DNA from: a virus
Lineage: Duplodnaviria > Caudoviricetes
IMG/VR virus record: IMGVR_UViG_3300037420_000901
Coordinates: 1-36,918 of that record
Length of the DNA stretch: 36,918 bases
Reading direction: 5' to 3' (one strand)
The translations under genes and the position numbers were made by a program. Shown one piece after another: positions 2,130 to 29,212 of this stretch. Under the pieces are notes generated by a model. That model saw nothing but the letters and a program-made list of their open reading frames with translations. It was not told the origin of the DNA and made no database searches. The first letter of the stretch is position 1. Each line of letters starts with the position of its first letter.

Positions 2130-2824
2130 TTAATGTATTGGATAAAGGTTACGTTCGATTGGTAGACAAAATGGGTTCTGATGTATCCGTAGTCAATTCG
2201 GCCCGGGTGTCCTATGATAAACAAGTGGATTCCTTAAGCGATAAGGACCGGAGGCTTATCCGCTTCTTGGCGGAGAACGAGCATACTTCTCCCTTTAGAC
2301 ATGCTATGCTCCAATTTGAGATTTATGCTCCCCTAATGGTTGCCCGCCAGTGGTGGAAATACATCATCGGTTCATCGCATCAGGATAATATGGCGGCTTG
2401 GAATGAATCCTCCCGCCGATACATTACGGAGGAACCTACATTTTATGTTGTTCAAATGAACGAATGGCGGTCGGCCCCGGTTAACTCGAAACAAGGAAGT
2501 GGCGAAATCCTCCCTTTAGACACTGGGGATAAACTTACCCGCTCTTTGATTGATTCATATAATTACGGCATCACTATGTATGAACAGGCTATGGAAATGG
2601 GTGCTTGTGCTGAACAGGCGAGACTTTTCCTTCCAGCCTACGGGATGTATGTCCGGTGGTACTGGACAGCAAGCCTTTACGGTGTGGCTCACTTCCTCAA
2701 CCAAAGGCTAGGCCATGATGCTCAGAAGGAAATACAGGATTATGCGGCGGCGGTTGCTAAACTGGCCAACGAACACTTTCCTGTTTCCATACAACAACTT
2801 GTGAAAGGTAGTGGATTAGAATGA
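2126..2824 (+). CDS. thyX: FAD-dependent thymidylate synthase
   Basis: VNSARVSY, HTSPFRH, VARQW, NESSRRY, EQARLFLP, HDAQKEIQDYA. Confidence 0.95.
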   Translation: MINVLDKGYVRLVDKMGSDVSVVNSARVSYDKQVDSLSDKDRRLIRFLAENEHTSPFRHAMLQFEIYAPLMVARQWWKYIIGSSHQDNMAAWNESSRRYITEEPTFYVVQMNEWRSAPVNSKQGSGEILPLDTGDKLTRSLIDSYNYGITMYEQAMEMGACAEQARLFLPAYGMYVRWYWTASLYGVAHFLNQRLGHDAQKEIQDYAAAVAKLANEHFPVSIQQLVKGSGLE

Positions 2825-3945: not shown

Positions 3946-4558
3946 GTGGGACATTGATCGTTTGAGAATAACCGGGTTGGACTTGTCGCTATCCTCTCCC
4001 GGAATAGCGCATATTTCTCCTTATGGGGAAATACCTATCGCCACCCGTTCTATAAAGACCGAATCAAGCGAGTCGTGGCATACCCGGATACACCGGGTAG
4101 CCACTGGCATACGCGATGAAGTCATAAAGTTTGACCCAGACTTTATTTTTATCGAGAATTATTCGTTCAACAGTAAATTCGGCCGAGAAATAGCCGGAGA
4201 GGTACACGGTGTAGTTCTCTATCTCTTGCACCAATGCGGATACGACAACACCTTTAGGGTGATTGCCCCTACTTCTCTAAAGCAGTTTGCGGCGAACAAT
4301 ACCAAGGCCAAAAAGAAAGAAATCATCGATGCTATTAAGGAGTACTATGGGATTACGTTCAAACAATCCCAAAACGACCAAGCAGATGCCTTCGTGCTGG
4401 CTAAGATCGGTGAAATTCTCGTATGGCGGGAACACTCCGACCGCAACCCCGTTCTCGGACACACTATTCCGAAGCATAAAGAGGTAGTTGTCCAAAAGGC
4501 ATTAGAAAATCTAAGGAGTGACAGCACATGGCTGAACATGTTCAACCAAAGAAAATAG
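3929..4558 (+). CDS. RuvC-like Holliday junction resolvase
   Basis: GLDLSLSSPGIA, FIENYSF, APTSLKQFA, DQADAFVLA; AGGAGG RBS before ATG 3929. Confidence 0.85.
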   Translation: MRSQTKWDIDRLRITGLDLSLSSPGIAHISPYGEIPIATRSIKTESSESWHTRIHRVATGIRDEVIKFDPDFIFIENYSFNSKFGREIAGEVHGVVLYLLHQCGYDNTFRVIAPTSLKQFAANNTKAKKKEIIDAIKEYYGITFKQSQNDQADAFVLAKIGEILVWREHSDRNPVLGHTIPKHKEVVVQKALENLRSDSTWLNMFNQRK

Positions 4559-4827
4559 AATTGAAAGTTGCGGCTACATCAAACCCGGCAAGCGTTGCCG
4601 GGGCTATAGCTAAGAATTATCAGGAGGGCAAAGAGGTATTCCTTATTGCGGTTGGGGCCGGGTCGGTTAATCAAATGACTAAAGCCGTGGCGATTGCATC
4701 TGGATACCTAGCTCCTTCTGGAATTTCCATTGGCGCAAAGATAGGATTTACAGACACCGTTATCATTGATGACGCGGGAAACCAAAAAGATCGTACAGCG
4801 ATGCTTTTCAAAATTATCGAAGTGTAG
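4528..4827 (+). CDS. spoVS: Stage V sporulation protein S homologue
   Basis: LKVAATSNPASVAGAIA, AVGAGSVNQMTKAVAIASGYLAPSG, RTAMLF closely follow the SpoVS consensus. Confidence 0.92.
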   Translation: MAEHVQPKKIELKVAATSNPASVAGAIAKNYQEGKEVFLIAVGAGSVNQMTKAVAIASGYLAPSGISIGAKIGFTDTVIIDDAGNQKDRTAMLFKIIEV

Positions 4828-5445: not shown

Positions 5446-5801
5446 AGCAGGATTACGGCATTAATCAGATCGCCTCAGACCTTGCAACCATGCTCATTCA
5501 AAAAGGTCATTTTGACAATATCAAAAATAAAAATGTGTATGCTACTTCCGCTCTTATCCATACGGAGGTTTCCGAGTACACCCAATTGTACAAGCGGTAT
5601 GGGATGGCGGAGGCTTTCAAAGATGACCGTGCCATGGAAATCGCGGATATGGTCTTTAGGGTTCTCAATCTGGCACTCATGGAAGGCATAGATGTGGCCG
5701 AGGCGGTCCGCAAAAAACTTGAATTTAACTGGTCCCGGCCCTATAAATTCGGTACGGCGGAGGAAGGAGGGAAACCTGATGAAGCTAAGGACCATATTTG
5801 A
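5442..5801 (+). CDS. MazG-like nucleotide pyrophosphohydrolase
   Basis: LIHTEVSE...EIADMVFR...KKLEFNWSRPY all-alpha NTP-PPase pattern. Confidence 0.8.
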   Translation: MKQDYGINQIASDLATMLIQKGHFDNIKNKNVYATSALIHTEVSEYTQLYKRYGMAEAFKDDRAMEIADMVFRVLNLALMEGIDVAEAVRKKLEFNWSRPYKFGTAEEGGKPDEAKDHI

Positions 5802-6510
5802 CTTTGACCCTTCCCAACTCAAGATCATCGAGGTTTACAATTCGATTCAAGGGGAGGGCATTGACATTGGTACGGAAGTTATATTCGTTCGCACTTCCGG
5901 CTGTAATCTGTCTTGTGTTTGGTGTGACACAAAACATAGCTGGACAGGTAAAAGCGGTGATTCCATCACCCCCGGAGATTTACTCAAACGAGTCATCAAA
6001 GAAACGAAAGGGTCCAAATCCGTTATCATAACGGGCGGGGAACCTTTCGTACAGCCGCCGGAACCTCTGTTTGAATTTGTGGTTGGTCTAAAGGCTTTAG
6101 GCTATCACATCGCTTGGGAGACGAACGGCCTCCATATCCCGGATGACGGATTTATCGAAGCTACCGATTTATTCACGGTTAGCCCTAAGCTATCTTCATC
6201 CAAGCAAATTGTATTCCCGGAGCAGACTCTTGATGCTTGGGCGGCCCGGGCGGAAGGTAAAGTCCAGTTCAAGTTTGTTATCTCTGGCGATGATGATATG
6301 GCGGAAGCTTCTTACCTGATTAGCCGGGCGGGGAATATTCACGTTACAAATGCTCAATTGGTCTTTCAGCCGGAGGAGTCGCAGGATAAGGATATTTATG
6401 CGAAACTGCCGGACTTGGCTAGGGATTGGTTTAGAAAGCGGGGTATGAACATCATGGGCTTTAATGTCCGGTATATCCCGCAAACACATAAACATTACAA
6501 GATACGATAG
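5779..6510 (+). CDS. queE: 7-carboxy-7-deazaguanine synthase (radical SAM)
   Basis: SIQGEG, FVRTSGCNLSCVWCDT (CxxxCxxC), ITGGEP, ETNG, VSPKL, PQTHK. Confidence 0.92.
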   Translation: MKLRTIFDFDPSQLKIIEVYNSIQGEGIDIGTEVIFVRTSGCNLSCVWCDTKHSWTGKSGDSITPGDLLKRVIKETKGSKSVIITGGEPFVQPPEPLFEFVVGLKALGYHIAWETNGLHIPDDGFIEATDLFTVSPKLSSSKQIVFPEQTLDAWAARAEGKVQFKFVISGDDDMAEASYLISRAGNIHVTNAQLVFQPEESQDKDIYAKLPDLARDWFRKRGMNIMGFNVRYIPQTHKHYKIR

Positions 6511-6878: not shown

Positions 6879-7120
6879 TGCGTGACAATATTCGGATTAA
6901 ATCGACAAGCCCTCTGCACTATGAAATCCGCCGTACCATGTCGGAGGTAATTAACCGATCTAACCTTGAAGATCGTAAAAAGAACTTGGAAATGCAAATC
7001 GAAGCTCAAGAGGACGCTTTGGATACAATGAAGAGAAATCTTGCGGCTATAAATGATGCCTTGGCGACCGGACGCGGGGAGACTGAAAAAGAAACGAAGC
7101 AGAAGTCGGTAGGCGACTAA
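6878..7120 (+). CDS. Small coiled-coil protein
   Basis: TAATG-coupled on both sides; heptad pattern. Confidence 0.7.
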   Translation: MRDNIRIKSTSPLHYEIRRTMSEVINRSNLEDRKKNLEMQIEAQEDALDTMKRNLAAINDALATGRGETEKETKQKSVGD

Positions 7121-7701
7121 TGGAACCCATAAACGTTGATGGCTTGAAATACACCCAAGAGGACATCGAGTTTCATTTCCGGCAGATTATGCTGGCTTTA
7201 GGCTTGGACCTTTCTGACCCTAGCTTAAAGGAAACCCCTCACCGGGTAGCCAAGATGCTAGTAAATGAAACGTGTAATGGTCTTTTCCGGGGAGCACCAA
7301 AGATCACCACGTTTGAGTTCGAGGAGGGAGCAAGCCGGGATTTAATCATTATCGAGAACATCCCGTTTGCTTCGATGTGTGAGCATCACTTTGTTCCTTT
7401 CATCGGTACGGCCACCGTTGCTTATCTTCCGAAGGACAAGTATATGGGCTTATCGAAAGCGGCAAGGGCTTTGGATTACTTCGCCGCCCGACCTCAAGTA
7501 CAAGAACGGCTCACCGCTTCTGTGGCGGATTTTCTCTATGAGAAATTGGATGCCAAAGGGATTCTCGTTATGGTTACGGCGGAGCATATGTGTATGAGTA
7601 CTCGGGGCGTTAAGAAGCATGGCTCCAATACCATCACCACAGCTATCCGGGGCGAAATCGATAAACAGGAAGTCTTGGCTTCCATACAGCTTAAGCGATA
7701 A
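7120..7701 (+). CDS. folE: GTP cyclohydrolase I
   Basis: ETPHRVAK, SMCEHHFVPF, GLSK, RPQVQERLT, HMCMSTRGV. Confidence 0.95.
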   Translation: MEPINVDGLKYTQEDIEFHFRQIMLALGLDLSDPSLKETPHRVAKMLVNETCNGLFRGAPKITTFEFEEGASRDLIIIENIPFASMCEHHFVPFIGTATVAYLPKDKYMGLSKAARALDYFAARPQVQERLTASVADFLYEKLDAKGILVMVTAEHMCMSTRGVKKHGSNTITTAIRGEIDKQEVLASIQLKR

Positions 7702-7767
7702 CATCAAAGGGACGTAAGTAGGCACTCATTTGTCTTCTGTGCGTCCCTTTTGCATAGGAGGGCGGAA

Positions 7768-8127
7768 ATGAAAAAGCAAACAATTGGAGCTTTTGACATG
7801 GATGGCGTACTAGCCTCACTACTGGAATCTGGCAAATACCCGGAGGATTATGTTAAGAAGACGGTTATTCCCGGGGCTATCGAGTCTCTAAAGAGTATCC
7901 GGGCTTTAGGCCATAAGGTTGTTATTTTCACCGCCCGGTATGAGATTGACCGAGTGGTAACGGAGAAGTGGCTAGAGGAAAATGGCTTTCACGGCCTTTA
8001 CGATGAACTGATTATGGACAAACCTAAATTCGATTATTTGGTGGATGATCGGGCTATTCGTTTTGAGGGCTGGCCGGGAACTATCGAGAAGATTTTCAAC
8101 CTTGAGCAAACTGGGCGGTGGTACTGA
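7768..8127 (+). CDS. HAD-superfamily phosphatase (capless)
   Basis: FDMDGVL motif I, FTAR motif II, KP and YLVDDRA motifs III/IV. Confidence 0.85.
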   Translation: MKKQTIGAFDMDGVLASLLESGKYPEDYVKKTVIPGAIESLKSIRALGHKVVIFTARYEIDRVVTEKWLEENGFHGLYDELIMDKPKFDYLVDDRAIRFEGWPGTIEKIFNLEQTGRWY

Positions 8128-8340: not shown

Positions 8341-8694
8341 ATGGCACAATTCAACGAAGGATTTCAACGTGAAAAGCAACCTTGGGGCTACACTCAAGTT
8401 GTATCTACGACAACTCGGTTTAGGTCGCAGTATCTTACGGTTCTCCCCGGCCGCCGGACGAGCCTACATTACCATGATACTAAAGTTGAAACTCTTTACG
8501 TACTGGAAGGCTTCGGGTACATAGAGGCTAACGGAGAAAGAAAAGCAGTACGTCCGGGCGACCGTGTAACTATCCCGGCGGGGGAGCATCACCGGATTGA
8601 AGCCGGGCCGAATGGAGACTTAGTTCTTCTTCAACTGGCATCACCGGAAATCAATGATATTGTGTTCGTGGAGGATGACTATGGGCGAGCATAA
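8341..8694 (+). CDS. Cupin protein resembling the type II phosphomannose isomerase C-terminal domain
   Basis: KQPWG, TSLHYHDTKVETLYVLEG, IPAGEHHRI, C-terminal EDDYGR. Confidence 0.85.
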   Translation: MAQFNEGFQREKQPWGYTQVVSTTTRFRSQYLTVLPGRRTSLHYHDTKVETLYVLEGFGYIEANGERKAVRPGDRVTIPAGEHHRIEAGPNGDLVLLQLASPEINDIVFVEDDYGRA

Positions 8695-9391
8695 GCACGT
8701 TCTGATGTTCTCGGGCGGGCTGGACTCTTACCTAGCCTATCTTGCCCTAAAGGATAACGGTATTGAGCCTACATTGGTATACGCCGGATTAGGGCATAGA
8801 TATGAACGGGATGAATTTTGGGCGGCGCTCGCTTTAGCTAACTTTCATGGAGAGGAACTTATCCACACGAAGGCCCTACAACTTGGCGGATGGGAAGAAG
8901 ACAATGCGTATATTCCTATGCGTAACGGTTTCCTTGGCATGGCGGGCGCACTTTACGGAGATAGAATCTGGATGGCAATTATGGATGGGGAGCAAACTTA
9001 CGATGACTGTAAAAAGGGCACTTTTACTGCTCTGTCACTCGCTATTTCGGCTTTGTCGGGTAAGCCTGTTATTGTGGATTCGCCGTTTTGGGATAAAACC
9101 AAAGCGGAAGTAATCGCATCCCTTAATCCCCACCATTATAAATTATTGCTCCGTACAACATCTTGTCACCGGGCGGAACGGGTTCCGGGGAGTCAGTGTG
9201 GAAGATGTAACGCTTGCTTCCGGCGGTGGGTGGCCTTCGCTGTTAATGGCATAGAAGATAAGTTCCTATCCAACCCATGGGAAGGGTCAACGGCAGACAA
9301 TTACTTGTGGAAAGTGAGACAGGGGGATTCCTACGGCGGGAAGCGGGACGAAGAAATCCGGCAAGCCTTTAGGGAGGTAGGGAGACTATGA
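8681..9391 (+). CDS. queC: QueC-like 7-cyano-7-deazaguanine synthase (PP-loop ATPase)
   Basis: FSGGLDS, YIPMRNGFL, TTSC, CGRCNACFRR; GGAGG RBS before ATG 8681. Confidence 0.88.
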   Translation: MGEHKHVLMFSGGLDSYLAYLALKDNGIEPTLVYAGLGHRYERDEFWAALALANFHGEELIHTKALQLGGWEEDNAYIPMRNGFLGMAGALYGDRIWMAIMDGEQTYDDCKKGTFTALSLAISALSGKPVIVDSPFWDKTKAEVIASLNPHHYKLLLRTTSCHRAERVPGSQCGRCNACFRRWVAFAVNGIEDKFLSNPWEGSTADNYLWKVRQGDSYGGKRDEEIRQAFREVGRL

Positions 9392-9873
9392 CAGAAGAAA
9401 AGCCCGCTATTCTATTCACTAATGGGGTATTCGACTTACTCCATACGGGGCATGTAGACTTCCTTAAGAAGATATGGGAAGAAGCGGAGGAACTACGATT
9501 CCATGGACAGGAAACCGAAGTCGTTGTAGGCATTAATTCCGATGCTTCTGTCAAACGTCTAAAGGGTCCACATCGTCCGGTATTTAATGAGCATGATCGG
9601 AAAATGATGCTGGAATCCCTTAAGTACGTAGACCGGGTTATTATCTATCCTACGGATACTGCGGTGGAACTTATCGAAATGCTCCGGCCATGGACGTATT
9701 ACAAAGGTTATGACTATCTCGATAAATCTCAAACCATGGAACACCGAGCGGCTTTATATATTGGGGCGGAGGTAAAATTCGTTATGCCTCCGGCTTTTGA
9801 AATCCGACATACTACAAATATCATTCACGATATTTGGTGGACGGAATGCCAACGAAGGGCGGGAATCGAATGA
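9388..9873 (+). CDS. Sugar-phosphate nucleotidyltransferase, RfaE/HldE domain II-like
   Basis: FTNGVFDLLHTGHVDFL (HxGH), VVGINSDASVKRLKGPHRP, KGYDY. Confidence 0.9.
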   Translation: MTEEKPAILFTNGVFDLLHTGHVDFLKKIWEEAEELRFHGQETEVVVGINSDASVKRLKGPHRPVFNEHDRKMMLESLKYVDRVIIYPTDTAVELIEMLRPWTYYKGYDYLDKSQTMEHRAALYIGAEVKFVMPPAFEIRHTTNIIHDIWWTECQRRAGIE

Positions 9874-10574
9874 GCAAACCATTACGGCTGATCGCCGGAG
9901 ATTGCATTATAGATTGGGTGATACATGATGGTAAAATTACGCCGAAAGCGGGCGGGGCAGGAAATATTGTTCGAGGTCTTATGGAACGTGGGCATAATGT
10001 CAGTTACCTCACTGTTTACAATCCTATGCTTTACCCCCTTAATGCTGTTCTTCCGGTACATAGGGACTCACTCACCGATTTCACTCACCGGAATGTTTTT
10101 GTCCGTGACTATAACAACGGGGTATTTCATCGGTATCGGGAATCTTTGCGGGAAAAGGTATTTGACGTTAAAGACGCCTTTGCTGTCATCTGTCATGAGG
10201 ATTCGTGTGTTCGCCGCTTTAGTGCATTGTACGCCGATGTACGTGACCCTAAAGTTCGTGGCAAATGTGATATTCTCCGAATGAGTTCTTCTGACCCTTG
10301 GGAGGAAATTATGAGGGTAATTGACTTCAAAATGGCTGTTGTTACCTATAAAGACAAACTTGAAGTCTTCAACTCTTGGGAAGCCCTCACCGAAACTATA
10401 ATATTCCGCCCGGTGGCGGCTATAGACGATATCGGGGCCGGGGATACCTTCGATGTAGGGTTCTTGGATTGGTTCGTACACAATGAGGGGAAATCCTCCT
10501 ACGAAGGATTCAAGTACGCCATGTCTTTGGCACAGGAAAAAGTCCAGCAGATCGGAGTGTTTATGAATGAATGA
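9870..10574 (+). CDS. PfkB/ribokinase-family sugar kinase, HldE domain I-like (divergent)
   Basis: IAGDCIID, AGGAGNI, DDIGAGDTF anion-hole motif. Confidence 0.8.
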   Translation: MSKPLRLIAGDCIIDWVIHDGKITPKAGGAGNIVRGLMERGHNVSYLTVYNPMLYPLNAVLPVHRDSLTDFTHRNVFVRDYNNGVFHRYRESLREKVFDVKDAFAVICHEDSCVRRFSALYADVRDPKVRGKCDILRMSSSDPWEEIMRVIDFKMAVVTYKDKLEVFNSWEALTETIIFRPVAAIDDIGAGDTFDVGFLDWFVHNEGKSSYEGFKYAMSLAQEKVQQIGVFMNE

Positions 10575-11472
10575 TATTACATTTGGCCTTCGGATGTTCG
10601 CGCCGGGGATAGGGGATTTGGTGATGACTCTCCCACCCCTTTTCCATATACTCCGGCGGGGAGCTTGTAATCATATCCGGCTGTTCGTCTTCAATGAAGG
10701 ACAACGGGATGTCGCTAAAGCATGGGGCATACACGATGTTCACATTGTTGATTTCAACACGGACTGTCGGAAACTAATGCTTGAACGGGAGTTTTACTTG
10801 GATATGTCTGAACACCCTTTAGAAAAAATATGGTGGGGTTCACAGGAGTATATCGAGAAGCACGGCCGGACGCATGTAAAATACATGATTGAAAAGATTC
10901 TCGGCGGGCAGGGATTCCCTGCGGAGAACCCACAACCTCCCATTCTCCGACACAAATTTTATTCTAAAGACCCTAAAACAATCTTATTGGCACCGGGCGG
11001 AAGTCGCTACACGAAGCACCTACCAACCGATACTTGGGTGGATTTAGTGGCTAAGTTAAAAGATCATGGCTATAAGCCTTACTTCATCGGTAATCCCAAC
11101 CATCCCGGCTCCCATCAACTACGAGAGCTACACGAGAAGGGCTTAGACTTTATTGAATATCGGGGGATGGGGGCTATGGTTTATGATATCTCTTCGGCCG
11201 GAGCGGTCATTTCGATTGACAATGGCCTATATCATATCGCCTCCATCATGGAAGTACCGACCCTTGGGATATTCGGCCCGATGCCTTCTTGGTTATGGGG
11301 CGGGGTTGGGACCAAGACGCACAATATTGACCTAGGATGCGGCATCAACTGTACGGCTACACCCGGCATATGGGAGTGTGTCGGCCATCCGTGTATGAGG
11401 GGAATTACGGCCACACAGATCATGAAGAAATTTGAAAAGGAAGTGGAGCTGGAGCCATGGATAAACCATTAG
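10567..11472 (+). CDS. GT9 (heptosyltransferase-like) glycosyltransferase
   Basis: GIGDLVMTLP N-terminal motif; LLAPGGS...K; ISIDNGLYHIASIMEVPTLGIFGP. Confidence 0.85.
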   Translation: MNDITFGLRMFAPGIGDLVMTLPPLFHILRRGACNHIRLFVFNEGQRDVAKAWGIHDVHIVDFNTDCRKLMLEREFYLDMSEHPLEKIWWGSQEYIEKHGRTHVKYMIEKILGGQGFPAENPQPPILRHKFYSKDPKTILLAPGGSRYTKHLPTDTWVDLVAKLKDHGYKPYFIGNPNHPGSHQLRELHEKGLDFIEYRGMGAMVYDISSAGAVISIDNGLYHIASIMEVPTLGIFGPMPSWLWGGVGTKTHNIDLGCGINCTATPGIWECVGHPCMRGITATQIMKKFEKEVELEPWINH

Positions 11473-12548
11473 ACCTTTGCACACTTACCTTTACCCCCTA
11501 CATTGGAGATACCTTTCTCGCTACGGCCTTGGCCCGGAAGATCAATGAAGTAACCCTCCGGGATGTCGCCATTGTACAAATCGACGCGGAACATCATTAT
11601 GCCCACCACTTTTGTCGTGAGGAGGACCGTATTTTTATTCACTTGGGCGGGGCTTTAGGGGAACTTATCAGTGTGGGCAAGAACTTTAGCCCCGAAGCCC
11701 CTCTCCATAAGATTTACTATAAAGGACAATTCAACTACTTTTATGCATCCTTAATGGAGCATTTGGATTATCTGGCTATGATCGAAGATATAACGAACCG
11801 TGCTATTACACATCTAAACCCGGATGGTGTTCTGTACTCTTTCCATTATACTTTCCCTCATGCGTTTTTCGCGCGGGAGGCTAAACGGAAAGGGATTGAA
11901 GTCAGAGGGTACATACTGGATGATGCCTACAACCTTAAGATGATTAACCACCGGGGAGAAATGGTCGATGCCGTTATATGGACGGATGAATTTATCGGCC
12001 AACGGCTTTGTCGGGAGTTCCTTGGCTGTGACCTCACGGCGGAGGACTTTGACATCAATATCACGCCTATCCCGTTTGTTCACCCTACTAAAGTTACCCT
12101 GTTTCCGGGAACCCGGGGTTCCGGCCTTCCGACCGCCGGGCATTGGGTACAGGATGTGGAGTATCTTCGGCGGCAGGGGTATGATGTCGTGATGGCTACC
12201 ATGGAATCGGATGATATCGATACGGCTCCGTTCGTGGCGGCCGGGGCTAGACTGGATGGCTTTAGTAGCATAAAAGAAATGATTGCCCATATCACCACAT
12301 CCCAATTCATCGTCTGTAACGATTCCTCAGCCTTTCACTTTGCTTGGTACTTCGGGGTTCCGGCTATTGTGAAGCAAAAAGGTGGGTTCAACGATGAATG
12401 GATACCTGAGTGGATACGGGAAGACCCCTGTTACCCCTTGATGCCTCCGGTCATGATGTATGAGGAAGAATACACATACTTACTGGATTATGGGGTAAAT
12501 GAAATCCGTTCCGTCCGGCGGGCAAGTAGAACCAATGATCGACACTAA
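11457..12548 (+). CDS. Second, more divergent GT9-like glycosyltransferase
   Basis: IGDTFLATAL; LFPGT; IVCNDSSAFHFAWYFGVPAIV. Confidence 0.7.
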   Translation: MDKPLDLCTLTFTPYIGDTFLATALARKINEVTLRDVAIVQIDAEHHYAHHFCREEDRIFIHLGGALGELISVGKNFSPEAPLHKIYYKGQFNYFYASLMEHLDYLAMIEDITNRAITHLNPDGVLYSFHYTFPHAFFAREAKRKGIEVRGYILDDAYNLKMINHRGEMVDAVIWTDEFIGQRLCREFLGCDLTAEDFDINITPIPFVHPTKVTLFPGTRGSGLPTAGHWVQDVEYLRRQGYDVVMATMESDDIDTAPFVAAGARLDGFSSIKEMIAHITTSQFIVCNDSSAFHFAWYFGVPAIVKQKGGFNDEWIPEWIREDPCYPLMPPVMMYEEEYTYLLDYGVNEIRSVRRASRTNDRH

Positions 12549-13076: not shown

Positions 13077-13263
13077 CCTGACACATCTTGACCCTTGGGA
13101 AGTCATCGATTTTCCTTGGGGTACCGGAGTTCGACACCGTAAAGGCCGTTGGACAAATATATTCATCAAGCCTTTAGGTGAAGGAATTAATGTGGAACAC
13201 TTAAATGTAGTCCTTCATGCTAATGGAATTGAGTTCATACCGGAGGAAGGTGGACAAAATTAG
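13066..13263 (+). CDS. Small hypothetical protein
   Basis: GGGGG RBS before ATG 13066; in operon. Confidence 0.55.
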   Translation: MEDNLTHLDPWEVIDFPWGTGVRHRKGRWTNIFIKPLGEGINVEHLNVVLHANGIEFIPEEGGQN

Positions 13264-14242
13264 AATCTATCTCGCCGGAGGAGAAAGTATGTTAAACATC
13301 CTCAAGAATAACGGGGCGGAGCATGTACTGGTTTCGTATTACTACCTCCGAGAAAAAGGAGAAAAGACAGTAGAACATCTACTGAATGCCTTCCCGGATG
13401 TGTTCTTGGACTCCGGGGCATTTACCCTAAACGTTCAAATCGCCAAGGAAGGTATTGATTGGGATAGAATCTCACAAGACCCGAGGATTAAAAATTATGT
13501 CGAAGACTATGCCCGGTTCCTTGATAAATGGGGCCACCGCTTTAGTATCCACGCCGAAATCGATGTCGGGCCGGAGGAACAAAAAACGAGGCAAAGGGAG
13601 TTCCTTGAGCAATACTCCAACAGAATCCTTCCCGTTATCCATCCCTCCGATTACCCTGAATACCAACATTACCTATGCTCCAAATATGACTATGTGGCTC
13701 TCGGAGGAGTCGGGCAAGCACGTAGTCTTGAGGCAATTAAGGCTTATGTCACCCGAAAAATCCAATTAGCTAAACGGTACGGCACCCGGTACCACGGATT
13801 CGCTATCACGATCATCGAAATGATGCGGGCACTACCTTTCTACTCCTGTGACTCTACATCGTGGCTGATGGGCGGTAAGTACGGGATGACATTTTGGTTT
13901 GATGGTCACAGGCTCCGGGCCTATGACAAATTCTCCAAGAATGTCCGGCGGAGATTCAAAAATGAGTGCCGGGCTTTAGGAGTAGATTGGGAAAAGTTCA
14001 TGGCGGATAAAGCCCCGGCCGTGAATAAATTCAATCTCCTTCAATGGATACAGTATCAAGCCTTCATGAACAACCGTGGGGCACAAGGTATCGGATTGTA
14101 CAAAGAACAACAAGAATCCTTCTTCCAAGATCATCCGAATTACCGGGAAATCTATGTTGACGAATACAGGAGGGAAGACGATGGAACTAACGGAGAAGCA
14201 AGTATTCACCCTAAAGGACCTAGTTCGGATTCAAGGGACTGA
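13217..14242 (+). CDS. DpdA/TGT-like guanine transglycosylase (start uncertain, possibly GTG 13250)
   Basis: VFLDSGAF, EIDV, LPVIH, YVALGG, YHGFA, YSCDSTSW are the TGT-fold motifs of phage DpdA-like enzymes; co-located with folE/queE/queC. Confidence 0.8.
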   Translation: MLMELSSYRRKVDKIRIYLAGGESMLNILKNNGAEHVLVSYYYLREKGEKTVEHLLNAFPDVFLDSGAFTLNVQIAKEGIDWDRISQDPRIKNYVEDYARFLDKWGHRFSIHAEIDVGPEEQKTRQREFLEQYSNRILPVIHPSDYPEYQHYLCSKYDYVALGGVGQARSLEAIKAYVTRKIQLAKRYGTRYHGFAITIIEMMRALPFYSCDSTSWLMGGKYGMTFWFDGHRLRAYDKFSKNVRRRFKNECRALGVDWEKFMADKAPAVNKFNLLQWIQYQAFMNNRGAQGIGLYKEQQESFFQDHPNYREIYVDEYRREDDGTNGEASIHPKGPSSDSRD

Positions 14243-14429
14243 TGGGAACTGGAATTACAACCCCTACATGCACGGCCTGTTTAACGGCATGGAACTGATG
14301 CTGGCTACGGTGGAAGATAGGGAGCCTATTTACAAGGACCCGCCGGATGAATGGCTTTGTGATCTGGAAGTTACGACAGACCCGGAAGGAACGGTGAGTT
14401 GTGATGGCGAGAAGAACACTCAAGGATAA
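14181..14429 (+). CDS. Small hypothetical protein (paralogue A)
   Basis: AGGAGG RBS; motif YMHGLFNGMELMLATVEDREP. Confidence 0.7.
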   Translation: MELTEKQVFTLKDLVRIQGTDGNWNYNPYMHGLFNGMELMLATVEDREPIYKDPPDEWLCDLEVTTDPEGTVSCDGEKNTQG

Positions 14430-14619
14430 CCATTACTCCGATCTTAAGAGCCAATTGGCGATTGCAGAACGGAAGGTACAGGAGAATCCGGCGGACGATT
14501 ACCAAATTGGCCTATACAATGGACTTGAAATGTTCATGGCCAAAGTCGATGGGCGGGAACCGAAGTTGATTAAAAGTCACCGGGCTTCCGCTTTAGAGAG
14601 GGCGTTGAAAAAGATATGA
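14404..14619 (+). CDS. Small hypothetical protein (paralogue B)
   Basis: Motif YQIGLYNGLEMFMAKVDGREP similar to the upstream ORF. Confidence 0.7.
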   Translation: MARRTLKDNHYSDLKSQLAIAERKVQENPADDYQIGLYNGLEMFMAKVDGREPKLIKSHRASALERALKKI

Positions 14620-15221
14620 AAATCTATAAGGACTATCAAGCAAACGGCATGACGCTCTGGAAGTGCATCACCGGGCTTCTTACTCTTAACCCGTTCTACC
14701 TGATTGTTCTCCATCGGATAGCTCATATTCTTTGGGTCCTAGATGTTCCACTTATTCCGTACATTCTCCAAGCTATCGGTAAGGTTCTCTATTCCGCAGA
14801 TATTTCCCCGGAGGCTTTCATCGGTAAGGGCATCCGCTTCGCTCATACGTCAGGCATCGTCATTGGCCCTAAAGCTATCATCGGCCCGTACTGTCAAATA
14901 TTTCAGAACGTCACCATCGGCGGGCGGGCTAGGGAAAACAGACATGGAGGGTCAATGCCCACCCTTGGACCTTGTGTATCCGTGTTTGCAGGGGCTATGT
15001 TACTGGGACCCATATACATCGGGGAAGGGGCGGTATGCGGGGCAGGAGCGGTGGTCCTAAAGGACGTAGAACCCTTTGCTATTATGGTCGGCAACCCGGC
15101 AAAACAAAAGGGAAAGGTCACATTCAGCGACGATCTACTATTCACAATGTCGGCCTTAAGTATGCTAGGGTACCTAAAGCCGGAAAAGGTCCGAAAGCTT
15201 GTTTCAGAAATAACACCTTAA
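14616..15221 (+). CDS. Hexapeptide-repeat acetyltransferase, CysE-like
   Basis: LHRIAH, DISPEAFIGKG, HTSGIVIG, QNVTIGG, GAGAVVLKDV, VGNPAK. Confidence 0.88.
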   Translation: MKIYKDYQANGMTLWKCITGLLTLNPFYLIVLHRIAHILWVLDVPLIPYILQAIGKVLYSADISPEAFIGKGIRFAHTSGIVIGPKAIIGPYCQIFQNVTIGGRARENRHGGSMPTLGPCVSVFAGAMLLGPIYIGEGAVCGAGAVVLKDVEPFAIMVGNPAKQKGKVTFSDDLLFTMSALSMLGYLKPEKVRKLVSEITP

Positions 15222-15559: not shown

Positions 15560-16174
15560 ATGCTTGATGAATTTAAGAAAAAATTGGACGAGGATAAGAC
15601 TAGGAACGTCATCATACCGGACAACGCCGACCCGGACGATATCATTCCAAAGGATGGTCTTCCTTCTACCCCGCAGATCAAAGAGTTTATGGCGATGAAA
15701 GAACAATTAGCGGATGAACGAGTAATGGCGGCGGATATTGTGGTTAGGGAGCAAGCTCCATTGGCAGACCCTACGACAACGATTGCCACCGATTTACTTG
15801 GTGTTCCTAAGTTATGCGATCAATGCTATTTGGTCGATAAATGTCCGCATTTCCAGCCTAAGCATACATGCTATTATCAAACGGCTATCAAGATACAGGA
15901 CCAAGGCTCTATCGTTGAGCTTATGAAAATGATGATAGAAATGCAAGGCCAGCGAGTTCTATTCGGCCGACTGATTGAACAATCCGAGGGCGGCTATATC
16001 GATCAGAACTTATCAAAGGAAATGAAGCTCCTTATGGAGTTGATGAAAGACATGAAGGAGATCATGGCACCGCCACAGGAATCCGTTACGGTTATCGCTA
16101 AAGGCCCGGCCGGGGGCGGAGCGGGCGGAGGCGGTGGGATACTGTCACAATTATTTGGAGGCGGTCCAAAATGA
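15560..16174 (+). CDS. Hypothetical protein with a 4-Cys cluster and helical C-terminal domain
   Basis: CDQCYLVDKCP...TCYY; Gly-rich tail ending GILSQLFGG; AAGGAGGT RBS. Confidence 0.75.
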   Translation: MLDEFKKKLDEDKTRNVIIPDNADPDDIIPKDGLPSTPQIKEFMAMKEQLADERVMAADIVVREQAPLADPTTTIATDLLGVPKLCDQCYLVDKCPHFQPKHTCYYQTAIKIQDQGSIVELMKMMIEMQGQRVLFGRLIEQSEGGYIDQNLSKEMKLLMELMKDMKEIMAPPQESVTVIAKGPAGGGAGGGGGILSQLFGGGPK

Positions 16175-17115: not shown

Positions 17116-17538
17116 ATGGACGTAAAGGCTTGGGCGCGAAACAAAGGCTGGAACGTAGCGGGTATGCTGAACTTGGCGGCGGCGAATACAGAAGCCGGGG
17201 CGATCAACGATGCGGCGGTGGTTACCGACGACGATGGCGAGAGATACTTTACGACTTACATCTACACCGTTTCAAGTGGAAGTTGGGGTAACGCTACCAA
17301 GTTCACAAGTGCTTGCAAGGAATTTTATCTGGACCCCGCCGAATTGGACTCCTGCGAGGATTGGCCGGAAGTTGAGTCCCGGGCGGATGAGGTAGCCGCA
17401 TGGATGACTGAACAGGCGCGGGAAGCTGGCATGGATGGCGAGTTCTATTACGATCATAACGAGGCGGACGGAGACTTTGACTTCTTCTACCGCATCCCTT
17501 TAGGCAAGGAGGCTGATACTGATGTTCGTTCATTGTAA
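17116..17538 (+). CDS. Acidic hypothetical protein
   Basis: 140-aa ORF after the promoter module; D/E-rich. Confidence 0.7.
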   Translation: MDVKAWARNKGWNVAGMLNLAAANTEAGAINDAAVVTDDDGERYFTTYIYTVSSGSWGNATKFTSACKEFYLDPAELDSCEDWPEVESRADEVAAWMTEQAREAGMDGEFYYDHNEADGDFDFFYRIPLGKEADTDVRSL

Positions 17539-18058
17539 ATCTTCGGAGGTCGTTCACGGCCTCCGCCGTTTTCTTCCTTCTGGTCTTACACACGCGGATA
17601 TAGCATTCGCGTGTGTCGGATGGCCCGAGTGCCCCGGTGATGCTGTTGGGCCGATGGTTGGGACATTGCTTACGAAATACGGATACGATGTTGTCGGCAC
17701 TGTGGATAGTCCGCTGTCGGCCTCGAGCATTCCTTATTATAAGGCTCCGGCTGGCAAGATCGTTTTGGCTATTGATTCTCTGTTGGGTACTACCCTCGAA
17801 CGGGGAATGTGTCAAGTTTCAACCAACCCGCTAAAGCCGGGCGCGGGAGTAGGTAAAGAGCTTCCCGAGATTGGAGACTTTCATCTTGCTGTATGTATAG
17901 GCAAGAATCACGGTAATAGCTTTTTTAATAATCAGGAGCTTAAGTTTACTAGCTGGAACGTTATTAGTCCGTTAGTCAATGAAGTAGTTCAAGCGATTGT
18001 GCAATTCGTTCCACCTCCATTGGCTTTAGACGAGGTAGCGGCCGCACAAGATTTTTAA
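17522..18058 (+). CDS. yyaC: YyaC-like (DUF1256) putative spore protease
   Basis: CVG...GDAVGPMVGTLL, GTVDSP, LAIDSLLG, PLKPGAGVGKELPEIGD. Confidence 0.85.
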   Translation: MFVHCKSSEVVHGLRRFLPSGLTHADIAFACVGWPECPGDAVGPMVGTLLTKYGYDVVGTVDSPLSASSIPYYKAPAGKIVLAIDSLLGTTLERGMCQVSTNPLKPGAGVGKELPEIGDFHLAVCIGKNHGNSFFNNQELKFTSWNVISPLVNEVVQAIVQFVPPPLALDEVAAAQDF

Positions 18059-20167: not shown

Positions 20168-20419
20168 ATGGGAGTGATGGTGTTGGCAAGCCGGAGAAGG
20201 TACAACACCCGCATTCAAGAACTCTTTAGGAATCGCGGGAGCATCCAAGTGAAAGGGCAGACTGGTCTTTACGTCCTCATTGTAAAAGAACCCGACCGGA
20301 CGTTTGAAATGGGCGGGTACGGCAGTATCGGTGAGGCAGTAGATCAGGCTAAGACCCAAGCGCAACTAAGAAAGTTGGCCTTTGATGCGGCAAAGGATGT
20401 GTACAGAATACCGATTTGA
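20168..20419 (+). CDS. Hypothetical protein (start uncertain)
   Basis: ORF in operon orientation. Confidence 0.55.
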   Translation: MGVMVLASRRRYNTRIQELFRNRGSIQVKGQTGLYVLIVKEPDRTFEMGGYGSIGEAVDQAKTQAQLRKLAFDAAKDVYRIPI

Positions 20420-20438
20420 AGAAAGGTGGCGGAAGCCT

Positions 20439-20876
20439 ATGAAGAGGCTAAACGTAGTGTCGATTCAGATGGTAAGGGAAAAGTCCTTTCCGTATGAGGT
20501 CAGTCAGATTTGTTCCCCCGGTACGGCCGTTGACATCTTACGTAAGTACATTGGGAGTTCTGACCGTGAGATTCTAGTTATGATCGGGTTAGACACCAAG
20601 AACAAGATCAACGTGATTAGTACCATATCCATCGGTTCATTGAGTGCATCATTAGCCCACCCGAGGGAGATTTTTAAGGCGGCGATACTAGCCAATTGTG
20701 CATCGATCATTTTAGGACATAACCACCCGAGTAATGATACCCGGCCTAGTCAGGAAGATATCAAGATCACTGAACGAGTGGCGGCGGCCGGGGAAGTATT
20801 AGGAATCGAACTCTTAGACCACGTTATAATCGGAGAAGACAACCATTATTCAATGAAGGAGCATGATCAAATATGA
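20439..20876 (+). CDS. RadC-like JAB/MPN domain protein
   Basis: DREIL, LDTKNKI, AHPREIFKAAI, GHNHPSN...PSQED, LGIELLDHVIIG. Confidence 0.92.
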   Translation: MKRLNVVSIQMVREKSFPYEVSQICSPGTAVDILRKYIGSSDREILVMIGLDTKNKINVISTISIGSLSASLAHPREIFKAAILANCASIILGHNHPSNDTRPSQEDIKITERVAAAGEVLGIELLDHVIIGEDNHYSMKEHDQI

Positions 20877-21754
20877 TACACTATGAAGCGTTGGAGAAAT
20901 TAGATGCCCTCCGTGGGCTGGCGGATGTAAAGAAAACGACTCTTGATATCTTGGCTTTTATCGAGGTTGCGCGGAAGCGTAAAGAACTTGGGCTTAAGAA
21001 TGAGCGTCAGTCTAATCATTTCGTATTCACTGGAAAGCCGGGAACGGGTAAGACTACTGTAGCCCGGATTTTAGGAGAATTGATGGTCGAGGCTAATGTA
21101 TTAAAGAAGCCTAAAAGATCATCCGATGATGATTACAATGACAGCATCCCGTTCATTGAAAAAGGCGGGGCGGATTTTGCCGATAAGTATTCTGGGGGAG
21201 CCGAGAAGAATATGCGGGAAGCCTTTGAGGAGGCCCGGGGCGGAGTCTTATTCATCGACGAAGCCTATGCGCTACAACCACCCGGCGAGAACCATAGTAA
21301 TGGTCAGGCGGAAGGTGCGCTCACGACTCTTGTTCAAATGATGGAGAACTACCGCGATGAAGTTATGGTCATTCTCGCCGGATACGAAGACCGGATGAAA
21401 AAGCTCATTGATTGGAACCCCGGCCTCAGTTCCCGAATTTCCCATAAGATTCACTTCCCGGATTACGCCCTACCGGAATTGATCGAGATTGCGGATTCGA
21501 TCTTGGTGGAGAAAGAGTATACGATATCGGTGGAGTTTGAACGGCAGTTACGCCTTCGCTTGGAACAGGAGATGCGCCGGAAGGATTTTAGCAACGGCCG
21601 GACGGTCCGAAATCTATTGGAACAAGCTATGCGTAACCAAGCCTACCGTCTCATGTATGTGGACATGTGCTTGGATTCTACCGACCCGGATATGTTCATG
21701 AAGCTGATACCCGAGGACTTGGACCCCTCACTTAAGCCAGTCGCCACCGCATAA
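20873..21754 (+). CDS. AAA+ ATPase, SpoVK/CbbX family
   Basis: HFVFTGKPGTGKTTVAR, GGVLFIDEAYAL, VILAGY, NPGLSSRI, FSNGRTVRN. Confidence 0.9.
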   Translation: MIHYEALEKLDALRGLADVKKTTLDILAFIEVARKRKELGLKNERQSNHFVFTGKPGTGKTTVARILGELMVEANVLKKPKRSSDDDYNDSIPFIEKGGADFADKYSGGAEKNMREAFEEARGGVLFIDEAYALQPPGENHSNGQAEGALTTLVQMMENYRDEVMVILAGYEDRMKKLIDWNPGLSSRISHKIHFPDYALPELIEIADSILVEKEYTISVEFERQLRLRLEQEMRRKDFSNGRTVRNLLEQAMRNQAYRLMYVDMCLDSTDPDMFMKLIPEDLDPSLKPVATA

Positions 21755-26001: not shown

Positions 26002-26115
26002 AACCGCCCAAAAATGTAAGAATAAGTTAAGATTCCGCACCAATGGGCGGGGAAAGTGGAGAATAAGTCACGATTCCGCTTAAATGCTCTTTATCTACTG
26101 CCATCCTTTAGGGTT

Positions 26116-26168: not shown

Positions 26169-26444
26169 ATGGAACAAAAATTGCTTTTGGAACTTCTGGA
26201 TAAGGCCCATCATTCCTTTGGAAAGGACTTGGAGGATGCGGTGGATGCCACATGGGACAAATTGGAGGGCATGCTTTCGGAGGAACAAATGGAGGAACTT
26301 AAACCCTTCTATGCTTTATTGGAGGAATTTTACTGGGACTTAAAACATTCCTATTTGGCATCCGGCACATCGGAGGACTTGCCATCAACCATTCAAACTT
26401 TCGGCAATCGGAAATATACGGAATACTTCAAGGCAAATAAATAA
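26169..26444 (+). CDS. Acidic helical hypothetical protein (probable early gene)
   Basis: GGAGGT RBS; own promoter module. Confidence 0.75.
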   Translation: MEQKLLLELLDKAHHSFGKDLEDAVDATWDKLEGMLSEEQMEELKPFYALLEEFYWDLKHSYLASGTSEDLPSTIQTFGNRKYTEYFKANK

Positions 26445-26466
26445 TCTAATGCCCCTCCCCGGGCCT

Positions 26467-26498
26467 TATAATTTAAGGTACCGGGGCGGGAATCCCGG
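26467..26498 (+). promoter_or_regulatory. Promoter/leader-hairpin module copy 6
   Basis: TATAAT; CCGGG GCGGGAAT CCCGG. Confidence 0.65.
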
Positions 26499-26522
26499 AA
26501 AATAAAATGGAGGCGGTTAAGA

Positions 26523-26816
26523 ATGAACGACAGACAATTGGCTTTAGAATCACTTCATCAATGGATTGGTTTCGGACTCGGTATCGGACGCTTACCTTAT
26601 CAGGTAATCCGGGAGGCAAAGGAAAAATACCCCGAGGCTGGGCATCTCATTTATGAGGCCATGGTCGAGCAACTACATTGGGAAAAACAATTCCAAATAT
26701 GCGAACGGATAGGGCATAACATCACTCACGCGGAATCTTCCTTCGGCCCGGACTCCGGCACGGAAACTCTCTACTGCGGAAGGTGCGGGGCATCACACGA
26801 TATCATCTTTTATTAA
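26523..26816 (+). CDS. Hypothetical protein with C-terminal CxxxGH...CxxC
   Basis: GGAGG RBS; terminator at 26822-26846. Confidence 0.75.
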   Translation: MNDRQLALESLHQWIGFGLGIGRLPYQVIREAKEKYPEAGHLIYEAMVEQLHWEKQFQICERIGHNITHAESSFGPDSGTETLYCGRCGASHDIIFY

Positions 26817-26821
26817 AAACT

Positions 26822-26846
26822 GGCCCCGCTCCGGCGGGGTCTTTTT
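26822..26846 (+). terminator. Rho-independent terminator
   Basis: GGCCCCGC TCCG GCGGGGTC TTTTT. Confidence 0.75.
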
Positions 26847-26954
26847 ATGTGCATATATAATAGAAGAAACACAATTTATTTGGGAGATACTGTCACGACT
26901 TCGCGGGAGGGAACAGATTCCAACATTATTCACCAACCGCTTTAGGACAGGGTT

Positions 26955-26983
26955 TATAATTAATACATGGGCGGGAACCCCAT
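26955..26983 (+). promoter_or_regulatory. Promoter/leader-hairpin module copy 7
   Basis: TATAAT; ATGGG CGGGAAC CCCAT. Confidence 0.65.
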
Positions 26984-27009
26984 ACATAAACCAAATGGAG
27001 GTTATTAGA

Positions 27010-27291
27010 ATGTACAACACAATGGAAAAACTGCTAGTCATTATGGAGGACCAAAAGGCTTATGGCCGGGCACGGCAAAACTTGGAGGAACGGCTTTCTC
27101 CTAATCCTCTCCAAACTAAATACAACGGGCGGAAGGTTTATTGTGAGGGTTATGGATGGGGAACCATCTACGGAGGATATCTTAACCCAGACAACCACAC
27201 ATTCATCTTCTCGGCTTTCCATATCAAATTCGCTAATGGCACTTATACAACACTCCCGGTACACACGATAGTTAAAATGGCAAGGTCATAA
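27010..27291 (+). CDS. Hypothetical protein
   Basis: GGAGGT RBS; terminator follows. Confidence 0.75.
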   Translation: MYNTMEKLLVIMEDQKAYGRARQNLEERLSPNPLQTKYNGRKVYCEGYGWGTIYGGYLNPDNHTFIFSAFHIKFANGTYTTLPVHTIVKMARS

Positions 27292-27319: not shown

Positions 27320-27780
27320 ATGTCAAGGCGGCGGACAGAACCGAAACAGCTTTTTCTAGATTTACTATCCACAGCGATCTACGTATGGGGTATAATAAAA
27401 TCAACCCGGAAGGTACACCAATAAATCCTACGGGCAAAAGATATCAACCTCCATAAAGCCCCTAACGTGTTCCCGGTTGGACAGAGAATAGTCCTTCATC
27501 GTTAGGGGCTGATTTTTGTATCAAAAACATTTCGATCTAGTATCTATAATACGCATCGCCACAGAGTCGCCTTCACGAATTTACCACTTTACCTCAGTGG
27601 GGAGCCACGAACTCGCCTTCACGACTGTAAAGGAGCGGGGCGGACGAGCCAGTGGGACGTTCCACATCCAGCCACAGATGTCAACCGTTCCACAGATATT
27701 CGGAGAGGTCAAGGCTTTAGGGCAAAATAAATAAATAAAAAATTTTCCTCCAAAGGGTATACATTCTCACTAATAACACA

Positions 27781-27826
27781 TATAATAGGTATTAGGAAGG
27801 CAAACCTTCCCCGGGCGGGAACCCGG
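27781..27826 (+). promoter_or_regulatory. Promoter/leader-hairpin module copy 8 (double hairpin)
   Basis: TATAAT-N5-TTAGG; GGAAGG CAAA CCTTCC then CCGGG CGGGAA CCCGG; A/T tract upstream. Confidence 0.7.
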
Positions 27827-27840
27827 TCATATTATGGAGG

Positions 27841-28713
27841 ATGGTAAAAATGGAAAATCAAAAGGGCATGGAACAGGCAATGGAAATTCTCGGGGATATT
27901 CTCCCGGAGGAAACTGGGGAAATCTTGGTAACACTCCCGGAGGCGGGCAAGGCAACAGGCAAGGCGGGCAAGGTGGGCAAGGTGGGCAAGGCAACAGGCA
28001 AGGCAACAGGCAAGGCGGATACGGGCAAGGCGGGAACGGATAAGGCGGGAACGGATAAGGAATTGGCGGAAACGGTCAAGGCTATCACGGAGGAAAAGGA
28101 ACAGGCAATAAAATTTATATATGGGGCAGGCGGGCAGGTATGGTCATCCTTCCCAATCCTCTTGGATAAAAAGGAAAACCCCTTCATTCTGGATATTATC
28201 AACAAAGGCATACAGGGCAACCCTAACGGGCAAACCTTGGAGGCATGGGCAAAGGCTAATGGTACGGTACACATTACGGCAATAAAAGGCGGGGAATGGA
28301 CTTTCTACATGGTCACTCTTCATCCGGTCAAACAAATTAACTACAAACCATGGGAACTACAATGGAACATGGGCGGGACTTCCAAATTGGCCTATAACTC
28401 CTATAAGGAATCGGCAACAGGCAAACAGGTTAAACCCGGGGAAATGGTCCTAACTAACATCACTTCCAATCTAGGCAAGGCAATCCATCAGGCAAAGGCT
28501 TTAGGCAAGGTTTTTCAAATGGACTATACTCCATCCAAACAGGCGGAAAAACACTACTACAAATGGGACGGAAAAAGGGAAACCATTCAGGCATACGGTA
28601 ACAACTCACATCTCCCAATCCAAGGCAAGGTATATAAATCCTTGGAGGAAATAACTGGGGCAAAAATGGCAACATTCCAAAACTGGGCCGGGATACTTGG
28701 GGAAATAAAATAG
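27841..28713 (+). CDS. Hypothetical 290-aa protein (start may be ATG 27850) encoded without any isolated G
   Basis: Long ORF with GGAGG RBS; GKA/GKV repeat linker; no recognisable family. Confidence 0.8.
   Translation: MVKMENQKGMEQAMEILGDILPEETGEILVTLPEAGKATGKAGKVGKVGKATGKATGKADTGKAGTDKAGTDKELAETVKAITEEKEQAIKFIYGAGGQVWSSFPILLDKKENPFILDIINKGIQGNPNGQTLEAWAKANGTVHITAIKGGEWTFYMVTLHPVKQINYKPWELQWNMGGTSKLAYNSYKESATGKQVKPGEMVLTNITSNLGKAIHQAKALGKVFQMDYTPSKQAEKHYYKWDGKRETIQAYGNNSHLPIQGKVYKSLEEITGAKMATFQNWAGILGEIK
27943..28060 (+). repeat. Degenerate GGCAAG-based tandem repeats encoding a GKA/GKV/GTDK linker
   Basis: GGGCAAGGC/GGGCAAGGT/GGCAACAGGCAA units and two copies of AAGGCGGGAACGGAT. Confidence 0.8.
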
Positions 28714-28769
28714 GCAAGGCGGGAGGGGGTAACTCCTCCCTAAACTATAAACTTTACAGGAGGAAAAAA

Positions 28770-28958
28770 ATGGATACTACATTAAGGCGGGCTATGGTAC
28801 TAACAGGGCTATGGGAATACATTTCGGAAAATGGCAATCCCTCTACTATGGAATGGTTGGACGGTCTTTTTCTTCAACTCCAAACTGGGGATATATCTCC
28901 GGAGGAAATGGGGCAGGAAATCGGTAAAATTATTATAGGCATGGAATTACCCATTTAA
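28770..28958 (+). CDS. Small acidic hypothetical protein, also free of isolated G
   Basis: AGGAGG RBS; followed by a terminator. Confidence 0.75.
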   Translation: MDTTLRRAMVLTGLWEYISENGNPSTMEWLDGLFLQLQTGDISPEEMGQEIGKIIIGMELPI

Positions 28959-28962
28959 TACC

Positions 28963-29000
28963 AAAAAGACCGGGAGGGAAAAATTCTCCCGGTCTTTTTT
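28963..29000 (+). terminator. Strong, possibly bidirectional terminator
   Basis: AAAAAGACCGGGAG-loop-CTCCCGGTCTTTTTT. Confidence 0.85.
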
Positions 29001-29212
29001 ATTTCCCAAAATTATTTCCTCACCCACCTTCAAAATTTTTCCAACCCACCAGTGGGAGTACTTACTGTCATTGCAAAACCAAAATTACGAAACCCTCGCT
29101 TCTGAACCGGGGCAGGACCTACCCTTGATTAACACCATTATAGACGTATAGTACAAGCCACATGTATAATAAGTGGTATAAGCTGTAAAACTCAAGGCGG
29201 GGAGGGGAACCC

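Follow-up and report, generated by a model that had tools for sequence, protein, structure and literature searches.

A transcription unit without isolated guanines on its coding strand in a soil phage carrying deazaguanine and sugar genes

The window, by which we mean the whole 36,918-nt stretch analyzed (positions 1 to 36,918 of IMG/VR record IMGVR_UViG_3300037420_000901), is part of a tailed phage genome in which terL, portal and capsid genes were found, and the sequencing runs containing the phage come from soil or rhizosphere, with no RNA run among those listed. Since sporulation-type genes are present both here (SpoVS and a spore protease) and in a complete relative of 105 kb, G001 (SASP), we infer a spore-forming member of the Bacillota as the host. 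The window genes at 4528-4827, 17522-18058, 20382-21754 and 14616-15221 account for SpoVS, spore protease-like, RadC-like, AAA ATPase and hexapeptide acetyltransferase matches, the last without a match in G001. Directly upstream of terL lies a compact unit with the following features:

27706..28967, + strand: stretch without a lone G, delimited by run counting and HGH counts
27706..27786, + strand: promoter region with an A/T tract, a -35 box TATACA lacking G (27758-27763) and a -10 box TATAAT (27781-27786); the start is predicted
27841..28713, + strand: ORF1, 290 aa, likely start at 27850, family of 23 clusters
28770..28958, + strand: ORF2, 62 aa, obeying the same lone-G rule
28963..29000, + strand: terminator-like hairpin and T-tract, read from the sequence and not among the features listed by a scan
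29024-29034, + strand: CCACCTTCAAA, one copy here, one in G001 (40485) and one in the phage G002 (89110), in all three between the early unit and terL
26169..27291, + strand: three small, partly purged neighbor genes (lone G-runs 6/37, 15/40 and 10/35)

The original prediction placed the ORF1 start at 27841. Because of GGAGG at 27836-27840 and the N-termini of the homologues, the likely start is instead ATG 27850, which gives 287 aa (MENQ...). ORF2 has no match in G001, whose unit consists of one gene. CCACCTTCAAA is a possible packaging or end signal. In the cleanest of the three neighbor genes six lone Gs are left, every one in TGC. Upstream of an early-type promoter, both phages carry GTCACGATTCCG (window 26066-26077, L001 8094-8105), and extra copies of TCACGA occur in the window at 26893, 27573 and 27619.

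Between the flanking lone Gs at 27705 and 28968, the second of which is the first after the stretch and sits in the 5' stem of the hairpin, 1,262 nt of the + strand are free of single Gs. The recount gave 139 G-runs, all of two or more (102 of two, 27 of three, nine of four and one of five), close to the roughly 140 first estimated, and a count of zero for all nine HGH trinucleotides. The rule is strand-specific, as had been claimed: 162 of the 199 C-runs on the same strand are single. The G content of the stretch (0.258) is normal. The runner-up lone-G gap in the window measures 106 nt and the longest lone-C gap 56 nt. The effects described for the proteins hold as well, in that ORF1 and ORF2 contain no Cys, no Ser encoded by AGY and one Arg (AGG), every Met is followed by V, E, G, D or A, and A, D, E and V stand only behind residues with a G-ending codon.

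Simulation and recoding ruled out that the pattern arises by chance, from base composition or from codon usage. The longest lone-G gap in 200 first-order Markov simulations was 68 nt on average and 106 nt at most, while 1,000 synonymous recodes of ORF1 contained 73±6 lone Gs (minimum 55) and those of ORF2 15±3 (minimum 6), with none observed in either gene. The stretch is A-rich (441 of 1,262), as loss of G to A would give, but mutation pressure is hard to reconcile with an unchanged G content and an absence that is total and extends to the amino acid level. Selection for G-quadruplexes, an alternative raised in the original prediction, found no support: neither this stretch nor its counterpart in G001 has a G3 motif, and G4Hunter-type scores are low (fraction at or above 1.2 of 0.023 and 0.004 in the two purged stretches vs 0.006 in the rest). 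An assembly artefact is ruled out by independent samples and by a divergent genome showing the rule; contigs from two other soil studies have zero letter differences inside the stretch where they cover it, neither spanning it in one piece. Mutation pressure, quadruplex selection or artefact would thus be a very improbable explanation.

In G001, a stretch of 1,086 nt comprising the promoter, an ORF1 homologue and the terminator is free of lone Gs and likewise lies directly upstream of terL; outside it, no lone-G gap in that genome exceeds 210 nt. The two proteins are 43% identical, with a nucleotide identity of 53%. For each of the 23 proteins of the family (cluster members P0004, P0020 and P0021 were left out of this count) we computed the minimum number of lone Gs over all possible codings. 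This minimum is 0 in 14 proteins, 1 in four, 2 in two and 5 in one, followed by 9 and 17, and in 21 of the 23 it lies below every shuffle of the same protein (shuffle minima 6-14). P0015 and P0018 break the rule, and Cys is absent from the entire family. In 22 window proteins outside the early cluster the minimum ranges from 9 to 66. Viral and metagenome collections yielded no further DNA of the family, and 21 of the 23 proteins were evaluated at the protein level only. Within 10 kb of 50 other terL loci, a lone-G gap never exceeded 78 nt.

The position of the purge relative to the promoters bears on the level at which the rule acts. Its upstream edge lies 76 nt (window phage) and 89 nt (G001) before the -10 box, and every G-run between edge and box is doubled or longer (4/4 and 6/6), compared with a lone fraction of 0.59-0.61 in intergenic DNA. 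By simple arithmetic, and with predicted start sites, the chance of ten out of ten is about 1e-4; in G001 an AT-rich hexamer near L001 9804 is a possible upstream promoter. Because these upstream runs obey the rule, a DNA-level cause is favored, and the mild preference originally expressed for such a cause is strengthened by the second phage. The alternative is an effect on RNA, in which the mRNA would evade a nuclease or modifier of lone Gs, either as a host defense or with the 290-aa protein itself as a self-sparing shut-off enzyme. It would explain the sense-strand specificity without extra assumptions as well as the graded purge in the adjoining early-type genes, and ORF1 has faint ART/NADase-like neighbors in the Atlas (score 0.77-0.78, under the bar of the tool). 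However, in the remaining phage mRNAs about 60% of the G-runs are still single, the fold matches of ORF1 include no ART or RNase, and the link to the transferase described below would be unaccounted for. With the ten upstream runs also against it, the RNA-level explanation is weakened, yet it keeps a minor share of our credence.

Structure prediction for the 290-aa protein, which had been proposed as a check, returned a confident alpha/beta core but no known family. The model has an overall pLDDT of 72 and is of high confidence over residues 99-290, with a low-confidence N-terminus rich in K, G, A and T (27877-28060) that forms a repeat of GKA-type units built from AGGC words. No match was obtained in Pfam, PHROGs, PDB sequences, Foldseek (PDB and viral), VIA-align or the Atlas; Foldseek gave nothing at E<0.001, the best Z in fold alignment was 2.9, and a weak match to a MarR-type chain had an E of 0.06 over 54 positions. 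This absence of matches is evidence neither for a new fold nor for any function.

A TATC box was found 19-26 nt upstream of 13 of the 45 intergenic -10 sites (TATA[AC]T), compared with 0-4 in other distance bands, the distance having been chosen post hoc. These sites possibly represent a phage-specific promoter class:

21787, 24316, 24933, 26116, 27391 and 27545 in the window, and seven further sites in G001: TATC 19-26 nt upstream of TATA[AC]T

The two purged promoters have no TATC box. By analogy, and as a lead only, the box recalls the MotA-box promoters of T4.

The other part of the window relevant to the rule is a cluster of deazaguanine and sugar genes:

5779-6510, + strand: QueE, profile match below the curated NCBIfam cut-off
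7120-7701, + strand: FolE, profile match
7750-8127, + strand: HAD phosphatase, profile match
8341-8694, + strand: cupin, profile match
8654-9391, + strand: QueC-like, below the curated NCBIfam cut-off
9388..12548, + strand: HldE domain II-like adenylyltransferase, PfkB kinase and two GT9-like glycosyltransferases, from profile matches and a fold model
10567-11472, + strand: GT9-like glycosyltransferase 1, PF01075 at E 2.5e-13, below the NCBIfam cut-off
11457-12548, + strand: GT9-like glycosyltransferase 2, from a GT-B fold model
13217..14242, + strand: DpdA-like guanine transglycosylase, phrog_887 at E 5e-45
15560..16174, + strand: Cys-rich protein with a match to the C-terminal portion of DpdA in BCD7 and BRock

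In both phages QueE, FolE, HAD, cupin, QueC-like, heptose-adenylyltransferase-like, PfkB, the two GT9-like genes, a dCMP deaminase and DpdA form one run, with the sugar genes placed between the Que genes and DpdA. The preQ0 pathway set of FolE, QueD, QueE and QueC is fully represented, QueD (PTPS) via G001 alone, where it lies away from the cluster. The adenylyltransferase-like gene matches RfaE domain II at an E of 8.5e-34, below the cut-off. The model of transferase 2 (pLDDT 84) has a predicted GT-B fold closest to GT9/WaaC (best match GT9 3tov, TM 0.55; WaaC 2h1h, TM 0.55). Its donor would be ADP-heptose, and a DNA base, a virion protein or the cell surface could be its acceptor. The DpdA-like protein matches 171 phage records, and among the 40 listed, annotated DpdA proteins share 23-31% identity with it. 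Relatives of the Cys-rich protein stand at or adjoining DpdA in G004 and BS162P1; the protein may steer DpdA in strand choice or packaging. Transferase 2 is rare, with six homologues, and co-occurs with the ORF1 family on four of the five family contigs longer than 36 kb (two of the four pairings being putative). One family contig of 70.7 kb has no GT match among those listed, and when genomes were scanned for the transferase, the outcome was two matches, both short and weak. The co-occurrence may reflect shared ancestry of one clade. The modification reading of the original prediction is supported in part, namely by the presence of genes for a modification machinery, here of deazaguanine and sugar type.

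The rule, its conservation, the gene content and the co-occurrence with the transferase together support a reading to which we give about an even chance, that glycosylated deazaguanine at guanines outside GG runs impedes the host RNA polymerase and that the purged unit is a clean bootstrap. DpdA would swap G outside GG runs for 7-deazaguanine, and the products of the NDP-heptose-type and GT9 genes would attach a bulky group to it. On the non-template strand this group would stop or slow the sigma-A polymerase. Expression would start with the purged unit, whose 290-aa protein, probably a factor that binds DNA or the polymerase, would open the other promoters. Either the modification would be confined to the + strand, coupled to replication or packaging in one direction, or both strands would carry it and the non-template adduct alone would matter; we judge the two to be about equally probable. 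In CAjan, DpdA modifies both strands alike (PMC7544227), which counts against the scheme. A more specific version, which we find doubtful, has the sugar-bearing 7-deazaguanine on one strand only, at every G not beside another G, with a clean template; the purged operon would make a new-fold factor that lets the host polymerase read the coated genome, and purged units would reveal the motif, as GG[CT] does in BCD7 (below).

Published data bear on this scheme in both directions. Bulky 7-substituted deazaguanine blocked the B. subtilis and E. coli polymerases, the substituents used there acting mainly at initiation (PMC4838386). The block itself supports the glycosylated-deazaguanine reading; its action mainly at initiation, which does not predict the purge of a whole ORF, counts against it, as does the difference between the known DpdA motifs, GA and GGC, and the sparing of GG. 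Phage enzymes are reported to put heptose on DNA (10.1101/2023.12.21.572611), where the acceptor is 5hmC and not G. The beta subunit has a pocket for a non-template guanine (PMC4499132); this leaves the sparing of GG unaccounted for. Glucosyl-hmC DNA of T4 is readable by the host polymerase (PMC6755090), which also speaks against the scheme.

Which base carries the modification is a separate question, as + strand G and - strand C are indistinguishable from sequence alone. A milder form of the bias extends over the genome and fits the deazaguanine reading: the ratio of lone Gs on the coding strand (the + strand for 86 of 88 genes, and probably also the leading strand) to expectation is 0.75-0.76 in both phages vs 0.91-1.03 in six controls, and that of lone Cs is 0.93-0.95 vs 0.91-1.06. 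At four-fold sites the odds of choosing G before G are 3.0-3.8 in both phages, compared with 0.97-1.75 in the controls; Lys, Glu and Gln codons show no clear bias (0.92 and 1.24 vs 0.36-1.18). Heptosylated cytosine opposite the lone Gs could block elongation from the template strand, with DpdA as a bystander. The template strand is the usual side from which bulky lesions block, which favors this geometry and counts against a block from the non-template strand. A set of HAD/kinase, CTP-transferase and GT-B enzymes makes mono- and di-heptosyl-5hmC in the system of 10.1101/2023.12.21.572611, and thymidylate synthase homologues can make 5-hydroxy-dCMP (PMC13326640). However, no ThyA, C5-methylase or TET family was recognized in G001 among 67 further ORFs by Pfam and 24 by PHROGs, nor a dCMP hydroxy(methyl)ase or a C5-methylase with dioxygenase in the window, many ORFs of both phages being unnamed. 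The thymidylate synthases at the same site of the two rule-keeping phages do not match (ThyX at window 2126-2824, a phrog_24884 family member at G001 13624-14580), and the sugar genes lie amid the Que genes and DpdA. Neither -35 box has the consensus G, yet both retain the C, whose template partner, -31'G, is touched at O6/N7 by sigma region 4.2 (PMC4838386); the retained C agrees with a template strand that is clean. Because no cytosine-modifying enzyme was recognized in the complete relative, G is favored over C as the modified base, and we regard a template-strand cytosine as the target as quite unlikely.

A DNA-level cause could also come from the host. DarT1 is a guanine ADP-ribosyltransferase, and a defense of this kind, or a modification-dependent glycosylase or nuclease, might strike lone Gs on the displaced strand of DNA under transcription, with the purged unit encoding the counter-defense and therefore having to survive first. 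This would fit a boundary at the DNA level, the specificity for the non-template strand and a small early protein without a recognized fold. However, the 21 proteins that share the rule at 20-50% identity would need the same defense across hosts, and such a defense seems to us rather improbable.

Neither a GT9 nor an ORF1-family match is present in six complete genomes of DpdA phages (BCD7, CAjan, BS162P1, BRock, G002 and G004), and their HGH gaps never exceed 121 nt. The closest of them, G002 (TerL 61%), has QueE, QueC and DpdA without sugar genes; its syntenic gene upstream of terL has 111 lone runs among 174, the lowest of 67 genes and far above zero. Homology to ORF1 is undetectable for this gene and for BCD7 gp139; we consider it possible but on balance unlikely for the former and highly doubtful for the latter. 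Two other candidate gaps were rejected: for AGY in G002 (44 consecutive, score 7.0) the gap does not exceed what controls show, and a TAG/YAG gap in BRock gp1, traced into Alone3 and GiJojo, resembles general AT-codon avoidance. DpdA of G002 (104349-106178) is split in two by an insert, likely an intron, whose 205-aa ORF would encode a homing endonuclease.

By TerL and DpdA, the cultured Bacillus phage BCD7 is among the closest cultured relatives, and it shows a footprint of another motif:

L003 40171-44737 (BCD7 89171-93737), - strand: pair of gaps in which the coding strand lacks GG[CT], covering gp134, 135, 137, 138 and 139

These five small genes belong to units headed by promoters, close to the end of the record, and have no GGT or GGC on the coding strand vs 22.8 expected, while gp136, between the gaps, has 13. 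Over 4,000 nt of gap the coding strand holds 0 GGY and 126 GGR and the opposite strand 55 GGY. The single-gap score is 10.1 vs at most 7.9 in five controls, for one genome with borders set post hoc, and gp139 has no relative for a comparison of the motif. The CAjan DpdA motifs include GGC and, secondarily and weakly, GGT (PMC7544227), which equals the missing GG[CT]. As BCD7 has no GT9 match, it supports the link to DpdA more than the sugar step. Neither PMC6884629 nor 10.1101/2023.04.13.536721 mentions BCD7 in the main text.

Motif-specific 7-deazaguanine modification by phage DpdA is known from CAjan (GA and GGC, PMC7544227) and iggy (GA, PMC10484667), and DpdA subfamilies are described in 10.1101/2023.04.13.536721. 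The present phage shares with these systems the FolE, QueD, QueE, QueC and DpdA gene set and a context rule centered on G, but its context would be any G not beside G, sugar enzymes are interleaved and the footprint affects one strand. CAjan lacks a motif-free unit, having neither a stretch free of GA nor one free of GGC, and the word 'glycosyl' is absent from the main text of the 2019 and 2023 DpdA surveys (PMC6884629; 10.1101/2023.04.13.536721). With the heptosyl-5hmC system (contig 53 of 10.1101/2023.12.21.572611), it has in common a set of enzymes (HAD, kinase, nucleotidyltransferase, GT-B) for an activated sugar of the heptose type; there, however, 5hmC comes from a methylase and a dioxygenase, neither recognized here, whereas the present cluster lies within the deazaguanine pathway. 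Like MotA/AsiA of T4, an early protein could redirect the polymerase to promoters with a -10 and a phage box on glycosylated DNA, but ORF1 has no sequence or fold match to either, and the available part of PMC6755090 describes no purge of a target in T4. The enzymes of the cluster are new members of known families, while the purging of an entire unit on one strand is a feature new in kind; neither the footprint nor its use was found in the main texts of the open-access literature. In T5 and T7, restriction sites are avoided in the phage DNA that enters first, and there too a target motif is missing from a single early region. In those phages the sites are of 4-6 bp, on both strands and set by host enzymes, whereas here about a tenth of positions is banned on one strand and the protein is reshaped.

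That a family at 20-50% identity keeps a ban on nine trinucleotides on one strand shows that selection on nucleotides can constrain the evolution of a protein to an unusual degree. Should modification by the phage itself be the cause, the unit illustrates how the host polymerase begins to transcribe phage DNA that is heavily modified, and it predicts a glycosylated deazaguanine together with a factor that overcomes the block. Modification motifs would then be predictable from sequence alone, with the cultured phage BCD7 as a test case.
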